From: Escherichia phage vB_ESM-pEJ01 | Reading direction: 5' to 3' (one strand) | Length of the DNA: 64,000 nucleotides | Sequence record: OP114734.1 | Part shown: positions 55,134-62,235 of the stretch, in pieces | Position numbering within the stretch: the first letter of the stretch is position 1 | How the letters are laid out: each line of letters starts with the position of its first letter | Made by a program: the position numbers and the translations under genes | Notes under the pieces: model-generated | What the model was told of the DNA's origin: nothing | Database searches by the model: none | Seen by the model: the letters and a program-made list of their open reading frames with translations, nothing else

Positions 55134-55708
55134 TTATTTTGGATCTGGGAAATTCAATAGAGCATATTCTCCATAAAATTTCCTAGCTGCATTATCATAA
55201 GCGATTGCAGCTTCGATTTCTGTGTCATATTGTCCAAGAACATGTCTTTGTAGGTTGACCATTATACTAGCTCTCCATTTCTTACGCAAATCCTTCCTGT
55301 TACACTTACTAACACCCTTATACACACTAGAAAACTTTTAGACTTCTTCTTTCTATTATGTTGATTTTGCGCGTCGGTTGCCTCCATAAGATTTGGAGGA
55401 TTGTTATTAGCAGGATTACCGTCAATATGATCAATTAATCTAACTTGCGTCCCATGTTCTAGAAACCAAACAACCCTATGCACGAATAGATGAACTCTAG
55501 GAAGACCGTCATCTCTACTATGCCAAAATCTAAGATGACCATCTTTATTTGTTCTGACTTTAACTAAATCGCCGTGTTTATATCTACTCCCTAATGGTCG
55601 TCCTTTGATAGCTTTACTATCGACTCTATAATATAAGATACCCTCTATATGAGCATATCTAAGTTTTATCTCGTTTTGTAGGGATTCATCCCAATATTTA
55701 AAAGCCAT
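55134..55708 (-). pseudogene. HNH-AP2 homing endonuclease split by a frameshift at an A-run (or sequencing error)
   Basis: 55262..55708 carries HNH (LFVHRVVWFLEHGTQVRLIDHIDGNPANNNPPNL); AP2 domain (YKGVSKCNRKD...AAIAYDNAARKFYGEYA) continues in -1 frame as ORF 55134..55325; shift near aaaag at about 55318-55326. Confidence 0.55.
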
Positions 55709-55753
55709 TTTATAATCCTCACAAAGCCAGCGATTAAGCTGGCTTTATTTTAG

Positions 55754-56143
55754 TTATACCGGGTCTGGATATACCTTTTTATCGAGTTCCATATGCGGTC
55801 CGTCTTTAAAAGTAACCCAATCAACACCGCAGATAACAGGAACACCCAATTCTCGACCAGCTTGTTTAAATGCATCAGCGATCATGCGGTAATATTTCAT
55901 GTTCCATGTATCCTTATCTTTCGGATACGCTACAACGTCAACCGCGAAACCGTGAAGATGACGAGATTTCATAGTCTTAGATTTACCTTCCGCAACATAT
56001 TTCTTTTGCGTTTCTAGACTACGCACACCTTCCGTAATACCAAAATCGACCGGAGTCAGTTCTAATGCACGATGAACGACTTTTACCAGGTCTGGATGTA
56101 CACCAACAAGCCGATCTTTGCTTCTTTGAGATAATTTAAACAT
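55754..56143 (-). CDS. peptidase M15-like cell-wall hydrolase (candidate endolysin)
   Basis: Zn-binding signature SRHLHGFAVDV and later GPHMELD; 129 aa, no signal peptide. Confidence 0.5.
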   Translation of the reverse strand: MFKLSQRSKDRLVGVHPDLVKVVHRALELTPVDFGITEGVRSLETQKKYVAEGKSKTMKSRHLHGFAVDVVAYPKDKDTWNMKYYRMIADAFKQAGRELGVPVICGVDWVTFKDGPHMELDKKVYPDPV

Positions 56144-56171
56144 TATTCACCCCCTTTGTGAGTGATAATAT

Positions 56172-56363
56172 TTAGATTCCTGTGATCCTGCATAGAGTTC
56201 TTGTATTAGCACCAATCAGGATCGCATTAACAGCAACCATTCCCCAATCAACCCACGGATCATTATAAATGCTAAATCCGTTTGCAAGACCAAATACAAG
56301 CATTCCGGTACACATACTCAGAGCAATAATCAACATCACGGTAAAACCAAATGCAAATCTCAT
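56172..56363 (-). CDS. small membrane protein (63 aa)
   Basis: Two hydrophobic helices. Confidence 0.45.
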   Translation of the reverse strand: MRFAFGFTVMLIIALSMCTGMLVFGLANGFSIYNDPWVDWGMVAVNAILIGANTRTLCRITGI

Positions 56364-56364
56364 A

Positions 56365-56631
56365 TTATTTTCCTTTTCTCTGTTTACGTTTATAAAAGTA
56401 ATACATTACCTCATCTCGTCCGGTGACCCAACATGCTAGGGCGGTAAACAGGTTTACAATTCCCAACACACCTACGGATGCGGCGCTATCAACAGACATA
56501 GGAACAGTAAAGGCCATAGCTAACATAGCAACGCCACAAATGACATTAAGCACCATTATAATAAGACCGAAGAAAACCATTGTCAATCCTCCCAAATAAG
56601 AAAACCAACAATCACGCCAGTGATAAGACAT
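56365..56631 (-). CDS. small membrane protein (88 aa)
   Basis: Hydrophobic helices; basic C-terminus. Confidence 0.45.
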   Translation of the reverse strand: MSYHWRDCWFSYLGGLTMVFFGLIIMVLNVICGVAMLAMAFTVPMSVDSAASVGVLGIVNLFTALACWVTGRDEVMYYFYKRKQRKGK

Positions 56632-56774
56632 GATGCGCCGCTAATAAGACAACCCGCGCCAAGTGATTCCCACCAGATCAGAGAAGCGACAATAACACAG
56701 AATCCCCATACTACCGCAATCACAACATAGGCAAGGGTCGCCCAAAACATATATTTGTTCATAATAAATCCCAT
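56583..56774 (-). CDS. small membrane protein (63 aa)
   Basis: Two hydrophobic helices. Confidence 0.45.
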   Translation of the reverse strand: MGFIMNKYMFWATLAYVVIAVVWGFCVIVASLIWWESLGAGCLISGASCLITGVIVGFLIWED

Positions 56775-56947
56775 TCACCAAACAAATAAGAAAAAAGCCA
56801 TATCAACAGAAACGAGGCAATTGATCCGGCAAGCAAAATGATATTAGAGAATCCGCCGTCTATCCAGGCGACAAAACAGAATACGCCAGTATAGAAGCAT
56901 AAACCCAGTACAAAGCATACTATAAGCAACCATAGACAAAACGCCAT
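56759..56947 (-). CDS. small membrane protein (62 aa)
   Basis: Two hydrophobic helices. Confidence 0.45.
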   Translation of the reverse strand: MAFCLWLLIVCFVLGLCFYTGVFCFVAWIDGGFSNIILLAGSIASFLLIWLFSYLFGEWDLL

Positions 56948-57171
56948 AGAAAGCCCTCCAGTGAGCTAATTTAGTGCGGGTAGTACATTACCCTACCCGT
57001 ATTGTTAATCATCGCAGAGCTTCTTCTAGCGCGATCCAAAACCATCCACAAACAACGCCCATACAGACAGCTACAAGAAGATTCATTCTCTCTTTAGGGA
57101 TCATTGCAATCATAACAACAACCATACAGAAAGCCACATTACCATTGAAGTTAACATTTGTTCAACCATTA

Positions 57172-57510
57172 TCACACCTTTAAAGTCATAGACGCATAAA
57201 CATTAATGCCAGGCCAGTTAGGATCGCAATTATACTCAACATCCCACAAATAAAGCGGTTTAGATGTATCAGCCAAGTTTTTAAAATCTTCTACCCACAT
57301 TTCAAGGCTATATGATGGATAAACTAGGCTATCATATCCGCCGTAACGTTGGCCTACTGGTCGGTCAGTAAAAACTACCTCAAGATCCGGTAATTCTTTT
57401 TCAAGGATAACCGCCAGCGCATAAATCAGACGGTCTTCCTTGTTACGCTGCCGAAGGACCGTTGTCAGTTGGTTTTTCTGGTTCACTAGCAAGCACCTCC
57501 ACATTTTCAC
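57172..57510 (-). CDS. hypothetical protein (possibly 3' part of a frameshifted gene)
   Basis: Overlaps upstream ORF by 68 nt; no ATG after the overlap until residue 71. Confidence 0.35.
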   Translation of the reverse strand: MKMWRCLLVNQKNQLTTVLRQRNKEDRLIYALAVILEKELPDLEVVFTDRPVGQRYGGYDSLVYPSYSLEMWVEDFKNLADTSKPLYLWDVEYNCDPNWPGINVYASMTLKV

Positions 57511-57763
57511 AGAATGAAATTTTCACAGACACAATTTTACCATAAGTGAAGAATGAATATACATTATCGAGATATTCAACGTCACCTACAATCACATCAA
57601 ACTGCGGATCAGCAACCGCCGCAACATATTCTACCAGTTCATCAAGAGAATGCAACTTAATTTCATCAATTCGGCTGTATTTGGTTGCATCTTTAATTTT
57701 AAAACCACGTTCTTTCAGTTTGTCAATCAGAATTTCACGCGGAGTTTCAAACAGTTTGCTCAT
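57443..57763 (-). CDS. hypothetical protein (106 aa)
   Basis: GAGGATTATATTATG initiation region. Confidence 0.5.
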   Translation of the reverse strand: MSKLFETPREILIDKLKERGFKIKDATKYSRIDEIKLHSLDELVEYVAAVADPQFDVIVGDVEYLDNVYSFFTYGKIVSVKISFCENVEVLASEPEKPTDNGPSAA

Positions 57764-57784
57764 AATATAATCCTCACATTAAAT

Positions 57785-57985
57785 CTAAAATTTGTTAACG
57801 ACGAATTGCATAATTAGACTAATCACAAACATTGCAAACCAAGTATAAATGCAACAGATAAAAGCTACATACAATTCAATCTGGTCAGAGAATACACCGG
57901 GTAAAAGCATTAGCAAAATAACAACAGTAAAGACGCTAGCGATACCCGCAACAAAACCAATATCATTTTTACTAATCGTCATCAA
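57785..57985 (-). CDS. small membrane protein (66 aa)
   Basis: Two hydrophobic helices. Confidence 0.45.
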   Translation of the reverse strand: MMTISKNDIGFVAGIASVFTVVILLMLLPGVFSDQIELYVAFICCIYTWFAMFVISLIMQFVVNKF

Positions 57986-58191
57986 GTCACCGTTTTGTAA
58001 AGAAACACAATAAAATCCAAGACAAGAAAGACAGTGTAAATGATCATCGTCAAGACAGTAAACACTGTCAAATTTTCATCGTTAGTTAATTCATAGTCGC
58101 CCATCCATACAATCACAAGATATAGCATTGAAAGAATGGAAGCACCTACGAAGTTAAAAAACATATTCTTGAGCGTCATATTAACAACCAT
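57982..58191 (-). CDS. small membrane protein (69 aa)
   Basis: Two hydrophobic helices. Confidence 0.45.
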   Translation of the reverse strand: MVVNMTLKNMFFNFVGASILSMLYLVIVWMGDYELTNDENLTVFTVLTMIIYTVFLVLDFIVFLYKTVT

Positions 58192-58363
58192 CGCGGCTTA
58201 AGTCAACAGCAATTGCATACAGCATAATGAATATGCTAGCAGATCCGAGAATCAATACACCCTCACATTTTGAAACTCGCTCATCAAAATGTAACATTAT
58301 CCATCCGAGGATGTTAAAGGCGCAGACCGCGCCTATGTTCGCTAACCAATTAATCTTTTTCAT
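58181..58363 (-). CDS. small membrane protein (60 aa)
   Basis: Hydrophobic helices. Confidence 0.45.
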   Translation of the reverse strand: MKKINWLANIGAVCAFNILGWIMLHFDERVSKCEGVLILGSASIFIMLYAIAVDLSRDGC

Positions 58364-58371
58364 AATATACC

Positions 58372-58698
58372 TTAGAAAGAAACAGTTTTCAAGAAATCCA
58401 GATTTTCAGTACCGAAAAAGGAAAAGTAGTGTTTTCCTTTTTCGGTTTTAGAGAAAGCGATTGTCTTCTCTACATGGTGACGGAAGCCAGACAGACGATC
58501 ACCCAGGTCAAGGCGGCAAGCGTAAGTAGTGCCGTTTTCGAAAGTAACCTCGATTTGAGTTTTGTCATATTCGCTTTCATAGGCTTTTGCTGCCGCGTCC
58601 TGTGCTTTACGCTCGAAGTCTTCGAAGTGGAATACTTCGTTTGCGTTAGCGAATACAGAAGATTCAGAGAAGATAACTTTAACAGATACTGGTTTCAT
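58372..58698 (-). CDS. hypothetical protein (108 aa)
   Basis: Promoter-leader cassette upstream; AGGAGTATCAAAATG. Confidence 0.5.
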   Translation of the reverse strand: MKPVSVKVIFSESSVFANANEVFHFEDFERKAQDAAAKAYESEYDKTQIEVTFENGTTYACRLDLGDRLSGFRHHVEKTIAFSKTEKGKHYFSFFGTENLDFLKTVSF

Positions 58699-58740
58699 TT
58701 TGATACTCCTTAGTAGTTCGTGTTTCGTTTCGATGGGTGT

Positions 58741-58769
58741 ATTATGCTATACACCCTCTCGCGTGTCAA
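58741..58769 (-). promoter_or_regulatory. sigma70-type early promoter (-35 TTGACA rc 58764-58769; -10 CATAAT; IR gggtgtat/atacaccc)
   Basis: 17-nt spacer; recurring cassette. Confidence 0.5.
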
Positions 58770-58777
58770 CAACTTTT

Positions 58778-58966
58778 TTAGTCTTTTTTCATAATTTCTA
58801 GAGCAGTTTCTACAGCACCTTTCCAACCTTCCCACATAATGGACATAGTAAGGAAGTTAAAGCACCCGCAGGAATCAACCTTTTTAGAGATAAACCATTC
58901 TACAAACGCTTCGCTCATACCATGCTCTTTAGCGGATTCGCGTAATTGTTCAATTTGGTCTTCCAT
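58778..58966 (-). CDS. hypothetical protein (62 aa)
   Basis: ORF track. Confidence 0.45.
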   Translation of the reverse strand: MEDQIEQLRESAKEHGMSEAFVEWFISKKVDSCGCFNFLTMSIMWEGWKGAVETALEIMKKD

Positions 58967-59656: not shown

Positions 59657-59702
59657 AATTTGATTCTCCGTTTAAGAAAGTGTGTTTCGTTTCGATGGGT
59701 GT

Positions 59703-59731
59703 ATTATGCTATAGGCGTGATCTGGTGTCAA
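59703..59731 (-). promoter_or_regulatory. sigma70-type early promoter (-35 TTGACA rc 59726-59731; -10 CATAAT)
   Basis: 17-nt spacer; recurring cassette. Confidence 0.5.
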
Positions 59732-59763
59732 CAACTTTTTTAAAAAATTTTAGGCAATAAAAA

Positions 59764-59932: not shown

Positions 59933-60151
59933 TTATTTATATCGCTTTCTCTCGCGACGTTTTTGATCTTCTTCCTTGATAGAGTTAAACGCATCAAAAA
60001 GACACATGACACTGATAATGAACATAACCGTATTTTCTACGATATCCCACGGCTTCGCATCAGTACAGATCCCCCAAACGGTAAGAAATGCAAATAGTGC
60101 AGAAGAGATCACAAGCATGATACTTGCTAAGATATAAAAAGTCATTTTCAT
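59933..60151 (-). CDS. small membrane protein (72 aa)
   Basis: Hydrophobic helices; basic C-terminus. Confidence 0.45.
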   Translation of the reverse strand: MKMTFYILASIMLVISSALFAFLTVWGICTDAKPWDIVENTVMFIISVMCLFDAFNSIKEEDQKRRERKRYK

Positions 60152-60342
60152 GGTTTTACCTCAATTCTTCGATATTCATCACACATCCACGCAGTAAGCA
60201 AGAATCCCAGCACATAAGCAACAAAATACGTTAATGCTTCTTCTGGTTTCGTGCTATGTATCATCAGTAAACCAGCGAGAACGGTCTTAACAATTACATT
60301 TAAAATAACTAGCCACGCAAATAATTTCATCGTTTGCCCCAT
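60148..60342 (-). CDS. small membrane protein (64 aa)
   Basis: Hydrophobic helices. Confidence 0.45.
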   Translation of the reverse strand: MGQTMKLFAWLVILNVIVKTVLAGLLMIHSTKPEEALTYFVAYVLGFLLTAWMCDEYRRIEVKP

Positions 60343-60566
60343 TTCGGTCGAGTCTTTTCAAACTTATACATTCCGTAACAATCTCGAATCATCCACGTAA
60401 CAAGAGCACCAGTCAACACAGACAATACACAGAAGAAGTAAAACGGTCCGGTTGCATTATCAACATGAGCAAGCCATGTAAAGAAAACACATGCAAGGAA
60501 CGTGAAGAACATCATAAAGCACAAGAAAGCAAAATATTTTATACTACTCATAGCGCCACCATACAA
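60327..60566 (-). CDS. small membrane protein (79 aa)
   Basis: Hydrophobic helices. Confidence 0.45.
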   Translation of the reverse strand: MYGGAMSSIKYFAFLCFMMFFTFLACVFFTWLAHVDNATGPFYFFCVLSVLTGALVTWMIRDCYGMYKFEKTRPKWGKR

Positions 60567-60654
60567 CAGATCATAAGAAACCCCAACGCAATAAGAATTG
60601 CGTCAAATTTAGTGAACTCAGGTCCACCTATCAACATCATTCGTTCTATTTCGT

Positions 60655-60897
60655 TCATAGCGTACAAAGCCATTTAAAAGCACCACATAAAGCGAGCAGA
60701 ATACTAGGTATAAACGAGATCATAACAAGTTTGCAAAAATCATCTAAGGTAACGCCGGAATAGCTACCTACTGTAACAACACCGATCATCAGACACAGAA
60801 AGAAAACAAATGCAACCAGAAACAAAGTATTGCTAAACAGTTTAGTGATCATTAGACACCCCACGACGATCAATTTCAAAAACTTTTTTACCATCAA
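60655..60897 (-). CDS. small membrane protein (start uncertain)
   Basis: Hydrophobic helices; overlaps upstream ORF by 56 nt. Confidence 0.4.
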   Translation of the reverse strand: MMVKKFLKLIVVGCLMITKLFSNTLFLVAFVFFLCLMIGVVTVGSYSGVTLDDFCKLVMISFIPSILLALCGAFKWLCTL

Positions 60898-61045
60898 CGA
60901 AGCATGTCACAACTGCCTCGTTGACTTCCGCAAATTGTTGTGTTACCCACTTAAGGTCAGAGCGAAACAATGTTCTATTAATAACAAATGTTTTACCGCT
61001 CTTATCCTTACCCATAAATTTTGCTTTAACCATATCCAATTCCAT
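60842..61045 (-). CDS. possible Dmd-like antitoxin (67 aa)
   Basis: MELDMVKAKFMG...QQFAEVNEAVVTCFVDGKKVFEIDRRG resembles my recollection of T4 Dmd (not verifiable here); not in the T4 dmd position. Confidence 0.35.
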   Translation of the reverse strand: MELDMVKAKFMGKDKSGKTFVINRTLFRSDLKWVTQQFAEVNEAVVTCFVDGKKVFEIDRRGVSNDH

Positions 61046-61054
61046 ATTATCACC

Positions 61055-61213
61055 TTATTTGCTAATCGCTAAACCCAATCCGAAGAGAGCACCCGATGCT
61101 ACAGTATACCCGAAAGTTTCAAATGCAGTAAAGATATCTAAGCCACCAGCTAACAGAGTTGCAGTAAACAGAGTACCAGCTACGAACATAAAAGTTTTAC
61201 CGATGAATTTCAT
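61055..61213 (-). CDS. small membrane protein (52 aa), not in ORF track
   Basis: MKFIGKTFMFVAGTLFTATLLAGGLDIFTAFETFGYTVASGALFGLGLAISK; AGGAGAATCAAAATG initiation region and promoter directly upstream. Confidence 0.5.
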   Translation of the reverse strand: MKFIGKTFMFVAGTLFTATLLAGGLDIFTAFETFGYTVASGALFGLGLAISK

Positions 61214-61244
61214 TTTGATTCTCCTTTCGTTTGTTTGTGGGGGT

Positions 61245-61273
61245 ATCTTACTACCCCCGTTTCATGTTGTCAA
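61245..61273 (-). promoter_or_regulatory. sigma70-type early promoter (-35 TTGACA rc 61268-61273; -10 TAAGAT; IR gggggta/taccccc)
   Basis: 17-nt spacer; IR 61240-61259. Confidence 0.45.
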
Positions 61274-61279
61274 CTATTT

Positions 61280-61654
61280 TTAAGAATATTTTACTTCGTC
61301 TACAATGTCTTTCATGACATTGATTTCCATTCCGGTCAGAACACGTTGGAACATGTGCTGCACATACGCTTTCAGGTATTCATTTGATGGCTTACTATCG
61401 AAAGTCTTTTTAGTGTAGTAGTCATCACCGAAAGCTACTGTAATTACATTTTCGTCGTCGCTCCAAGCGATATAAGCAAATTTGCCGTTATCCCAGAAGC
61501 GAGCACTAATTGCTACTTTTGTTGAATCGAATCCTACTTCGCTGTGAGATTCAAGAACTACTTGTGTGCCAGTTTCTTTATGAATGTAGTAGCGGGATAC
61601 TAAGTCAAAGTTACGGGTGTAGTGACATTCGAATTTATCTTTAAACATCATCAT
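61280..61654 (-). CDS. hypothetical protein (124 aa)
   Basis: Promoter-leader cassette upstream. Confidence 0.5.
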   Translation of the reverse strand: MMMFKDKFECHYTRNFDLVSRYYIHKETGTQVVLESHSEVGFDSTKVAISARFWDNGKFAYIAWSDDENVITVAFGDDYYTKKTFDSKPSNEYLKAYVQHMFQRVLTGMEINVMKDIVDEVKYS

Positions 61655-61692
61655 TTTTGATTCTCCTAAGTGTGTTTCGTTTCGATGTGTGC

Positions 61693-61721
61693 ATTATGCT
61701 ATAGTCGTTTATGGTTGTCAA
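61693..61721 (-). promoter_or_regulatory. sigma70-type early promoter (-35 TTGACA rc 61716-61721; -10 CATAAT)
   Basis: 17-nt spacer; recurring cassette. Confidence 0.5.
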
Positions 61722-61738
61722 CACATAAAAACAAAAAA

Positions 61739-61757
61739 CCCCGAAAAATTTTCGGGG
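61739..61757 (-). terminator. rho-independent terminator 3' of the 2H phosphoesterase gene
   Basis: Hairpin ccccgaaaa/ttttcgggg followed on minus transcript by UUUUUUGUUUUU. Confidence 0.5.
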
Positions 61758-61764
61758 TATAAAA

Positions 61765-62235
61765 TTACAGTTTGGACGTCCACTCCAGGTCTAGATCTTC
61801 GACATACTCATGAGATCGGACAATCTCTAAATCGAACTCTAGGTCAGTGCCAAATTTACGCGCACCAACATCATAAGAAAGCGTGATATGCGGTACATAT
61901 TCAGGATAATCCCACGTCGCGCCTAAAGCAGTGCCTATATCGTGTCTGAATTGCATGTAGTCGCTTTCAAATGCCAACACAAGCGCATTAGTACCGGATT
62001 GAGTTTCAAACACTTTAAGATGGCATAGAGAGCCTAAGAACTTTTCACCCTCTTCTGGTATAAACGGAACATAGACACGAGAATATAAGATAGTGCTATG
62101 CAGTTTATCACGAGGAACGGCATTAGGCAGATCGTAGAACTCCTGCAATTTTTCAATGCGGTCTAGTGTATCCTCAGTGAATTTAACCGCCGCATATGTA
62201 CCTTTAACGGATTCTCTAAACGGGGTCATAATCAA
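61765..62235 (-). CDS. 2H phosphoesterase, Acb1-like (T4 57B position; candidate anti-CBASS cyclic-nucleotide phosphodiesterase)
   Basis: Two H-x-T/S motifs (HSTILYS and HITLSYD) about 90 aa apart; about 155 aa; adjacent to 57A-like gene. Confidence 0.55.
   Translation of the reverse strand: MIMTPFRESVKGTYAAVKFTEDTLDRIEKLQEFYDLPNAVPRDKLHSTILYSRVYVPFIPEEGEKFLGSLCHLKVFETQSGTNALVLAFESDYMQFRHDIGTALGATWDYPEYVPHITLSYDVGARKFGTDLEFDLEIVRSHEYVEDLDLEWTSKL

Follow-up and report, generated by a model that had tools for sequence, protein, structure and literature searches.

The Escherichia phage vB_ESM-pEJ01 carries seven very small membrane-protein genes directly upstream of its endolysin gene, which encodes an M15 peptidase. 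They were analysed in a 64,000-nucleotide stretch of its genome (record OP114734.1; referred to as the window). The explanation that fits them best, and that is in our view probably right, is that they encode early accessory hairpins of the inner membrane which act in superinfection exclusion and/or in the neutralisation of membrane defence effectors. We are rather more confident that the small genes are real, early and accessory and do not form a lysis cassette. That at least one of them acts in superinfection exclusion or counter-defence, as analogy with T4 Imm suggests, is put forward more tentatively.

The window belongs to Krischvirus (RB49-like T4-type coliphages): across the 5.4 kb around the array 58 phage records align at 90-99% identity, and each of them is a Krischvirus (RB49, Phi1, JSE, GEC-3S and related isolates). 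All genes of the array region, and all features described below, lie on the minus strand, and the GC skew is negative throughout. In the preliminary description of the array, seven open reading frames (ORFs) of 60-88 aa, each consisting essentially of two hydrophobic helices, had been placed upstream of the M15 peptidase gene (55754-56143) in a run of four and a run of three, and had been considered as holin/antiholin-type lysis regulators, exclusion or immunity proteins, or host takeover factors. All seven ORFs were recovered at those positions, and comparison with the RB49 record identified them as ORF103c-106c and ORF110c-112c (here p103-p106 and p110-p112). The two helices per ORF are supported by a Kyte-Doolittle scan, by the TMHMM table published for RB49 (PMC1524935) and, for p104, by an AlphaFold2 model (helices 2-25 and 30-69, pLDDT 78). 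The sizes had to be revised: a mechanical first-start rule had over-extended the starts of p104, p105, p110 and p111, and after correction with PHROG profiles and the annotations of relatives the true range is 59-71 aa, with none at 88 aa.

Closest to the endolysin gene lies p103 (56172-56363, 63 aa), which was identified by its ORF and hydropathy and matches phrog_15016 over its full length (E=2e-43). Then follow p104 (56365-56580, 71 aa and not 88), with a strong Shine-Dalgarno sequence (SD; GGGAGGA), a basic C-terminal tail (YKRKQRKGK) and a start set at 56580 because phrog_15232 aligns to residues 18-88 of the long ORF; p105 (56583-56762, 59 aa, phrog_16151), the start of which overlaps the stop codon of p106 (ATGA); and p106 (56759-56947, 62 aa, phrog_19354), which lacks Lys and Arg and has a GGAG-containing SD. 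The second run comprises p110 (57785-57982, 65 aa, phrog_15379), p111 (57982-58179, 65 aa, phrog_21837), the most dispensable member, and p112 (58181-58363, 60 aa, phrog_16425). We analysed loops and charges with the published transmembrane (TM) boundaries for RB49. In six of the seven proteins the loop, of 4-9 residues, contains no Lys or Arg and at least one Asp or Glu, with Lys and Arg located at the termini. On the basis of this charge pattern each small ORF is predicted to be an inner-membrane helical hairpin of 59-71 aa with an N-in/C-in orientation and a mostly acidic periplasmic turn of 4-9 residues. As the exposed surface of such hairpins is minimal, any activity would have to run via intramembrane helix-helix contacts.

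The array was found to be larger than first described. Besides ORF107c, located between the two runs, there are six small membrane ORFs further upstream around the antitoxin gene dmd, namely a second run of five (p118-p122, ORF118c-122c; 59933-60852, by hydropathy and the TMHMM table), which is transcriptionally downstream of dmd, and p124 (ORF124c; 61055-61213, 52 aa, TMHMM segments 7-29 and 33-50 in RB49), which is transcriptionally upstream of it. The number and tandem arrangement of the small ORFs had been called unusual, and the clustering indeed exceeds chance: with a crude gene caller of our own, 10 of the 12 small multi-TM ORFs among the 124 minus-strand ORFs of the 64-kb window fell within 56.3-61.3 kb (hypergeometric p about 4e-7). 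The arrangement itself was not new, as it had been tabulated for RB49 in 2006; in that table, by Nolan, 14 of the 21 novel (non-T4) RB49 ORFs with predicted TM segments belong to ORF103c-124c (PMC1524935, Additional file 2). The plus-strand AT skew is positive at 56001-58000 (+0.17) and at 60001-62000 (+0.08) and the profile is negative elsewhere; the positive values at both runs of hairpin genes can be attributed to T-rich hydrophobic codons on the coding strand.

Several lines of evidence show that the seven ORFs encode proteins and are subject to purifying selection. They are intact in most of the 58 relatives, and in nine sequenced relatives compared in detail the majority are undisrupted and of unchanged length (p103 is intact in 10 of the 10 genomes compared). 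Most starts are preceded by an SD, and adjacent genes either touch or share 1-4 nt. The pooled ratio of non-synonymous to synonymous polymorphism (pN/pS) among isolates is 0.11-0.25 for p103-p105 (0.20, 0.11 and 0.25, respectively) and 0.41-0.61 for p106 (0.61), p110, p111 and p112, the value for p110 being based on very few substitutions. A divergent metagenomic lineage (L013-L016, contigs up to 175 kb) retains every member in the same order and with the same lengths, and against contig L014 of this lineage the ratio of non-synonymous to synonymous substitution (dN/dS) is 0.14-0.38 at a dS of 0.17-0.82 for the seven ORFs (0.14 for p103, 0.32 for p104, 0.16 for p105, 0.38 for p106, and 0.24 for both p111 and p112). 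In p104, the second TM segment and the tail are identical across seven variants. The dN/dS for p118-p120 is 0.05-0.20. Protein identity to L014 is 65-90% for the TM genes (72% for p112) versus 96-100% for the soluble p108, p109, p113 and p117, so that the small membrane genes evolve faster than their soluble neighbours.

The array also varies considerably between isolates. ORF p111 carries a frameshift in W115 and in JK32, forms a fusion with p110 in AV108 and is missing from JSE and SFHK24, which have an alternative allele of p110; the RB49-type and JSE-type alleles of p110 are about 40% identical, and the latter replaces the former in the JSE group and in L014. Fourteen of the 58 records cover less than 80% of a concatenated seven-protein query and most of those listed share a pattern of 70%, so p111 is probably absent from other low-coverage records as well. 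Frameshifts were further found in p112 (FL04) and p122 (AV108), p121 is cut short by an early stop codon in most genomes, and truncated p110 variants are present in metagenomes. In JK32 (L009, 4177-4700), we observed a tandem duplication of 264 bp across the 3' end of ORF107c, a stem-loop and the 5' part of ORF106c, which creates a chimeric extra ORF. Absence or disruption in close relatives had been named beforehand as an observation that would speak against a function. Such cases do exist, as ORF111c is absent or frameshifted and ORF112c frameshifted in viable isolates; what the losses, frameshifts and fusion establish is that individual members are dispensable for propagation in the laboratory and not that they lack a function.

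The seven ORFs belong to no functional family in Pfam, NCBIfam or PHROGs, each matching only its own PHROG of unknown function. A tblastn search of the concatenated seven proteins against 50,697 phage records gave matches in Krischvirus only, and word-indexed searches of 5.8 billion proteins with p103, p104 and p110 returned only relatives at at least 74% identity; the homologs of p103 are confined to Krischvirus-like contigs and those of p104 (79-98% identity) to contigs of about 170 kb. An exhaustive HMMER search of 1.84 billion cluster representatives with a p110 profile retrieved nothing beyond the JSE-type allele and two variants that are truncated. The tandem arrangement had suggested a test for paralogy, and no paralogs were found: in an all-against-all Smith-Waterman alignment with shuffling of 15 hairpins the only significant pair was p110 and its JSE-type allele (z = 11.8), and the remaining 104 pairs had z <= 3.8 (median 0.26). 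Tandem paralogs were therefore rejected.

In the window and in RB49 the gene order is 3, 1, 57A, 57B, a variable slot, the endolysin gene (ORF102c), vs.8 and vs.6, and in T4 it is 3-1-57A-57B...e-...-vs.8-vs.6, with ipI, tRNAs, segB and e.8 to e.1 in the slot. The array thus occupies the variable 57B-to-e slot of T4-type genomes, between conserved core blocks, and since the gene order of RB49 matches that of T4 the M15 gene can be considered an in-situ non-orthologous replacement of e. Variable content, presence/absence and allele variation, restriction to one lineage and repeated promoter cassettes mark the small ORFs as accessory ORFans of a T4-type hyperplastic region. They share with the hyperplastic regions and the PeSL (promoter early stem-loop) cassettes described before (Arbiol et al. 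2010, PMC2839356; PMC4122927) the variable small ORFs between core blocks, the repeated early-promoter cassette and the indels and replacements among near-identical phages. They differ in their dense run of membrane hairpins, a feature specific to this slot; ORF103c-112c and their membrane character do not come up in those accounts. The array also has counterparts in T4, as the uncharacterised genes e.2, e.3, e.4 and trna.4, for which TM segments are predicted, occupy the same slot on the same strand, flanked by 57B/57A/1/3 and the endolysin gene. These T4 genes are, however, fewer, mostly longer (102-130 aa, with trna.4 at 61 aa) and interspersed with soluble genes and tRNAs, and there is no sequence similarity: in tblastn searches of the window and of RB49 1-60 kb and 100-164 kb (the scope of all our searches with T4 proteins) T4 61.4, e.2, e.3, e.4 and trna.4 gave only insignificant matches.

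The signals around the array suggest that it is transcribed early. Upstream of p113, the first gene of the transcription unit, a promoter scan found an early-type promoter (GTTGACA-17-CATAAT, 58741-58769, 11 of 12 positions matching), which coincides with a promoter annotated in GEC-3S and fits the published early consensus of RB49 with G at -33 (PMC1524935). It is part of a 61-nt early-promoter cassette that occurs twice (58720-58780 and 59682-59742, 87% identity, repeat family D1), and the second copy, preceded by a terminator stem-loop (59784-59763), resembles the PeSL cassettes described for RB49 and Phi1. The SDs of p113, p106 and p104 contain GGAG (RegB-type sites), and a RegB gene is located nearby. 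In T4, GGAG is the target of RegB, an endonuclease that acts on early mRNA. A terminator-like hairpin 3' of the endolysin gene (55723-55746), found in a terminator scan at a place where a terminator is annotated in G2248, closes the unit.

The endolysin gene itself (RB49 ORF102c, EndoRB49; Pfam Peptidase_M15_4) encodes an L-alanoyl-D-glutamate peptidase without a TM or signal-anchor-release (SAR) segment, the enzymology of which has been characterised biochemically (PMC8140593, PMC10487532). Immediately 5' of it, overlapping the stop codon of p103, is a candidate late promoter, TCTAAATA (56169-56176). This octamer is identical to an element labelled 'late RB49 promoter' in NC_005066, while the two 'hypothetical late promoters' of the RB49 record read TGTAAATA, and the p103-endolysin intergenic sequence that contains it is invariant in 14 of the 14 genomes compared, including the divergent lineage. 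On both strands of the window T[C/G/T]TAAATA occurs 6 times versus 16.7 expected and TATAAATA 2 times versus 5.6 expected, a depletion which suggests that late-promoter-like motifs are avoided where they are not needed. On a read-through transcript the TCTAAATA region pairs with the SD and AUG of the endolysin gene in a predicted RNA hairpin (56130-56180; -12.5 kcal/mol, z = -4.45), and none of 200 shuffled sequences folds as well; an RNA that starts at about 56161, just past the octamer, folds at only -3.1 kcal/mol. The early promoter cassette (58769-58741) would thus drive p113 through p103, the hairpin over SD and AUG would silence the endolysin cistron on early read-through RNA, and the endolysin would be made late from its own TCTAAATA promoter. 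If so, the small genes form an early unit with the endolysin expressed separately, and the small proteins would belong to the early programme and not to a lysis cassette. This predicted arrangement resembles that of the T4 lysozyme gene e, as the M15 gene lies at the e position and, on longer transcripts, its SD and AUG would be paired with the sequence of a late-promoter-like octamer. For T4 gene e, the early read-through RNA is reportedly untranslatable and the late transcript is said to start inside the hairpin (attributed to McPheeters et al., 1986). Unlike e, the gene encodes a peptidase and not a muramidase (a non-orthologous enzyme) and the candidate promoter is TCTAAATA and not TATAAATA. 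We found no description of such gene-e-style control for the M15 endolysin of RB49-type phages in the literature searched.

Probable early expression, minimal exposure, lineage restriction, divergence, allele replacement and dispensability, together with the neighbouring genes, point to a conflict-type role. The 57B-like gene that borders the slot (about 61.4-61.9 kb in the window, about 336-804 in L013-L016) matches Pfam Acb1, a phosphodiesterase directed against the cyclic-oligonucleotide-based antiphage signalling system (CBASS), and with dmd also present, genes of known counter-defence function flank the slot. The targets would be embedded in the membrane and would differ from one hairpin to the next. 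They might include the machinery with which a superinfecting phage injects its DNA, in analogy to T4 Imm, an early membrane protein of small size that attaches to the tape-measure protein of the phage entering the cell (bioRxiv 10.64898/2026.03.06.709160); other candidates are membrane defence or transport proteins of the host. A role in exclusion or counter-defence would give fitness benefits that depend on conditions, and would thereby account for genes that are individually dispensable, fast-evolving and swapped. The small proteins are like Imm in that they are small, are predicted to lie in the inner membrane, come from a non-essential region of a T4-type genome and, as far as the promoters indicate, are expressed early; Imm acts by intramembrane contact with the tape-measure protein. 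They are unlike Imm in sequence, in size and fold (Imm has 83-94 aa and four helices in the preprint model versus a two-helix hairpin) and in location (Imm lies beside gene 43 in T4). In the searches with T4 proteins Imm gave no tblastn match at E<=10, nor was there a Pfam Imm_superinfect match, and Sp gave a single weak match (27% over 74 aa, E=0.06) inside gene 41 that is likely spurious; the Imm/Sp role thus appears not to be filled by known genes.

Some observations weigh against this explanation. The search for Imm and Sp in RB49 covered 1-60 kb and 100-164 kb only, and no homology to characterised exclusion or anti-defence proteins was found in Pfam, NCBIfam, PHROGs or by tblastn of T4 proteins. 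The motif TATAAATA at 59941-59934, in the last codons of ORF118c and just upstream of a terminator, could yield late read-through transcripts that cover the array. The pN/pS or dN/dS values of 0.4-0.6 for p106, p111 and p112 are compatible with partial decay, and p104, p118 and p120 have the stereotyped look of class II holins (two TM domains and a basic C-terminal tail), which is generic.

A further-reaching version, which we regard as doubtful, would make the slot a dedicated 'membrane interface island' of about 14 unrelated, early-made hairpins, every one of which would counter a threat of its own in the membrane by binding to it there. These threats would comprise the injection pores of competing phages and the effectors that abortive-infection systems place in the membrane. 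Alleles such as those of p110 (RB49 type and JSE type, or p110J) would track their targets in an arms race, and the island would be the membrane counterpart of the flanking soluble anti-defence genes Acb1 and dmd.

Of the other explanations, a role in host takeover survives best, and we consider it unlikely. Here the hairpins would enter the inner membrane early and block or redirect transporters, respiration, division or envelope-stress sensors of the host to the benefit of phage growth, in the way of small bacterial membrane regulators and not as a means against phages or defence systems. The early-type promoter, the RegB-type SDs and the minimal exposed surface, which implies intramembrane binding, are as expected for such factors, and so are the strong conservation of the second TM segment and cytoplasmic tail of p104 and the constraint on p103-p105, which equals that on the endolysin. 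However, such targets in E. coli are conserved, which fits poorly with the divergence, the allele replacement and the frequent loss of p110, p111 and p112, and no homology to any known inhibitor was found in Pfam, NCBIfam or PHROGs.

The first of the functions proposed for the array, in which one or more hairpins (p103 and p104 above all) would be a holin, pinholin or antiholin that tunes the release or activation of the M15 endolysin, was not supported and is in our opinion very improbable. It takes its appeal from the location of the small genes next to the endolysin gene on the same strand and from the resemblance to class II holins and pinholins such as S21-68 of phage 21 (about 60-70 aa, two TM domains, N-in/C-in, a charged C-terminal tail and an adjacent endolysin gene), a resemblance that is greatest for p104. 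TM domains together with a charged cytoplasmic C-terminus, as in holins, are clear in p104 (7 Lys/Arg in an 18-residue tail) and weak in p103, p110 and p111, and the ends of p105 and p106 are acidic or uncharged. There are Pfam holin superfamily III matches to p104 (E=0.031 and 0.4) and p120 (E=0.076), but these are below threshold (11-15 bits versus cut-offs of 27-28), NCBIfam gave none and PHROGs only 'unknown function'. RB49 has its full T4-type lysis set elsewhere, with the holin gene t after the tail-fibre genes on the late strand, rI, rIIA/B and the spanin genes pseT.2/pseT.3. A pinholin would not suffice, because the endolysin is soluble, without a SAR or TM segment. The small genes lie upstream of the candidate late promoter of the endolysin and downstream of the early-type one, so that late expression together with the endolysin, as is typical of a holin, would not be expected, and a holin expressed early would be suicidal for the phage. 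The adjacency itself is explained by synteny with T4 gene e, which likewise has unrelated neighbours and is not adjacent to its holin gene, and is therefore no argument for lysis. Two related ideas were rejected as well: identity with the T4 antiholin RI, as rI is a separate gene (RB49p086, about 48.4-48.7 kb) and the periplasmic loops of the hairpins have only 4-9 residues, and a conserved module of endolysin plus array, as phage RB43 has an M15 endolysin (47% identical) without a membrane array upstream.

Least probable of all is that the hydrophobic ORFs are mostly non-functional filler, by-products of T-rich DNA in a recombination-prone region that stay open by chance or weak selection and are heading for loss, since the frameshifts, fusion and absence in viable isolates, the pN/pS of 0.4-0.6 for p106, p111 and p112 and the failure to find homologs outside the genus are outweighed by a dN/dS of 0.14-0.38 (dS 0.17-0.82) relative to a divergent lineage in which all members persist with the same lengths and order, by conserved start codons and SDs, by a charge pattern that is consistent across members and by the invariant second TM segment and tail of p104.

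Among the other genes in and around the slot, the eighth small membrane ORF p107 (ORF107c; 57009-57137) has 52 aa in relatives, with TMHMM segments 5-23 and 30-47 in RB49 (PMC1524935, Additional file 2), and is N-terminally truncated in the window, where a 2-nt insertion (TG, 57137-57170) relative to RB49 and all other relatives frameshifts its first ten codons and leaves a GTG-initiated version of 42 aa. Between p107 and p106 we found a stem-loop without a T-run (CGGGTAG-N9-CTACCCG, 56977-56999, -11.8 kcal/mol); it occurs once in the window and was rejected as a repeated element. The two runs are separated by the overlapping p108 and p109 (ORF108c and ORF109c; 57172-57763), soluble proteins without a TM segment by hydropathy that are 98-100% identical in L014 (dN/dS 0-0.05), and p113 (ORF113c; 58372-58698, SD AAGGAG) is a soluble LPD25-domain protein (Pfam LPD25, E=3e-14). 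The dmd gene (60842-61045) has a pN/pS of about 1.9 among isolates (summed pairwise differences: 5 synonymous and 38 non-synonymous) and its C-terminus is altered by a 1-nt insertion in JSE and SFHK24; the antitoxin may be under diversifying selection, the counts being small.

On the other side of the endolysin gene, just downstream of its terminator, lies a gene for an HNH and AP2 homing endonuclease (55134-55708), which compared with JSE is split into ORFs of 148 and 63 aa by a 1-nt deletion in an A-run and is either a pseudogene or the result of a homopolymer sequencing error. The last approximately 26 residues of the endolysin (55754-55795) occur in two versions that differ at 12 positions from ...ICGVDW... 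onwards (loci L001-L009), and the version of the window always accompanies the downstream homing endonuclease in 10 isolates, as expected for co-conversion during homing. L013-L016 carry a similar endolysin end without the endonuclease.

Annotation of the small ORFs dates back to the deposition of the RB49 genome, their two TM segments were predicted in 2006 (PMC1524935, Additional file 2), and they are ordinary in kind, being small membrane ORFans of a T4-type hyperplastic region. The literature searched yielded no work on these ORFs by functional, transcriptomic or genetic means and nothing on the cluster as such. In T4-type genomes a location beside the endolysin gene is no evidence for a holin, and these ORFs should not carry a holin annotation. 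Small hydrophobic ORFans are a large and unstudied part of the accessory genes of phages. RB49-type phages are isolated widely for use in therapy, and of the membrane ORFs predicted among the novel (non-T4) ones of such a genome about two thirds lie in a single early region of 5 kb beside known anti-defence genes. If even one member excluded phages in the manner of Imm or inhibited a membrane defence effector, the array would open a new way into the conflicts that phages have with one another and with their hosts at the inner membrane, and would indicate that such functions evolve as interchangeable helical hairpins.

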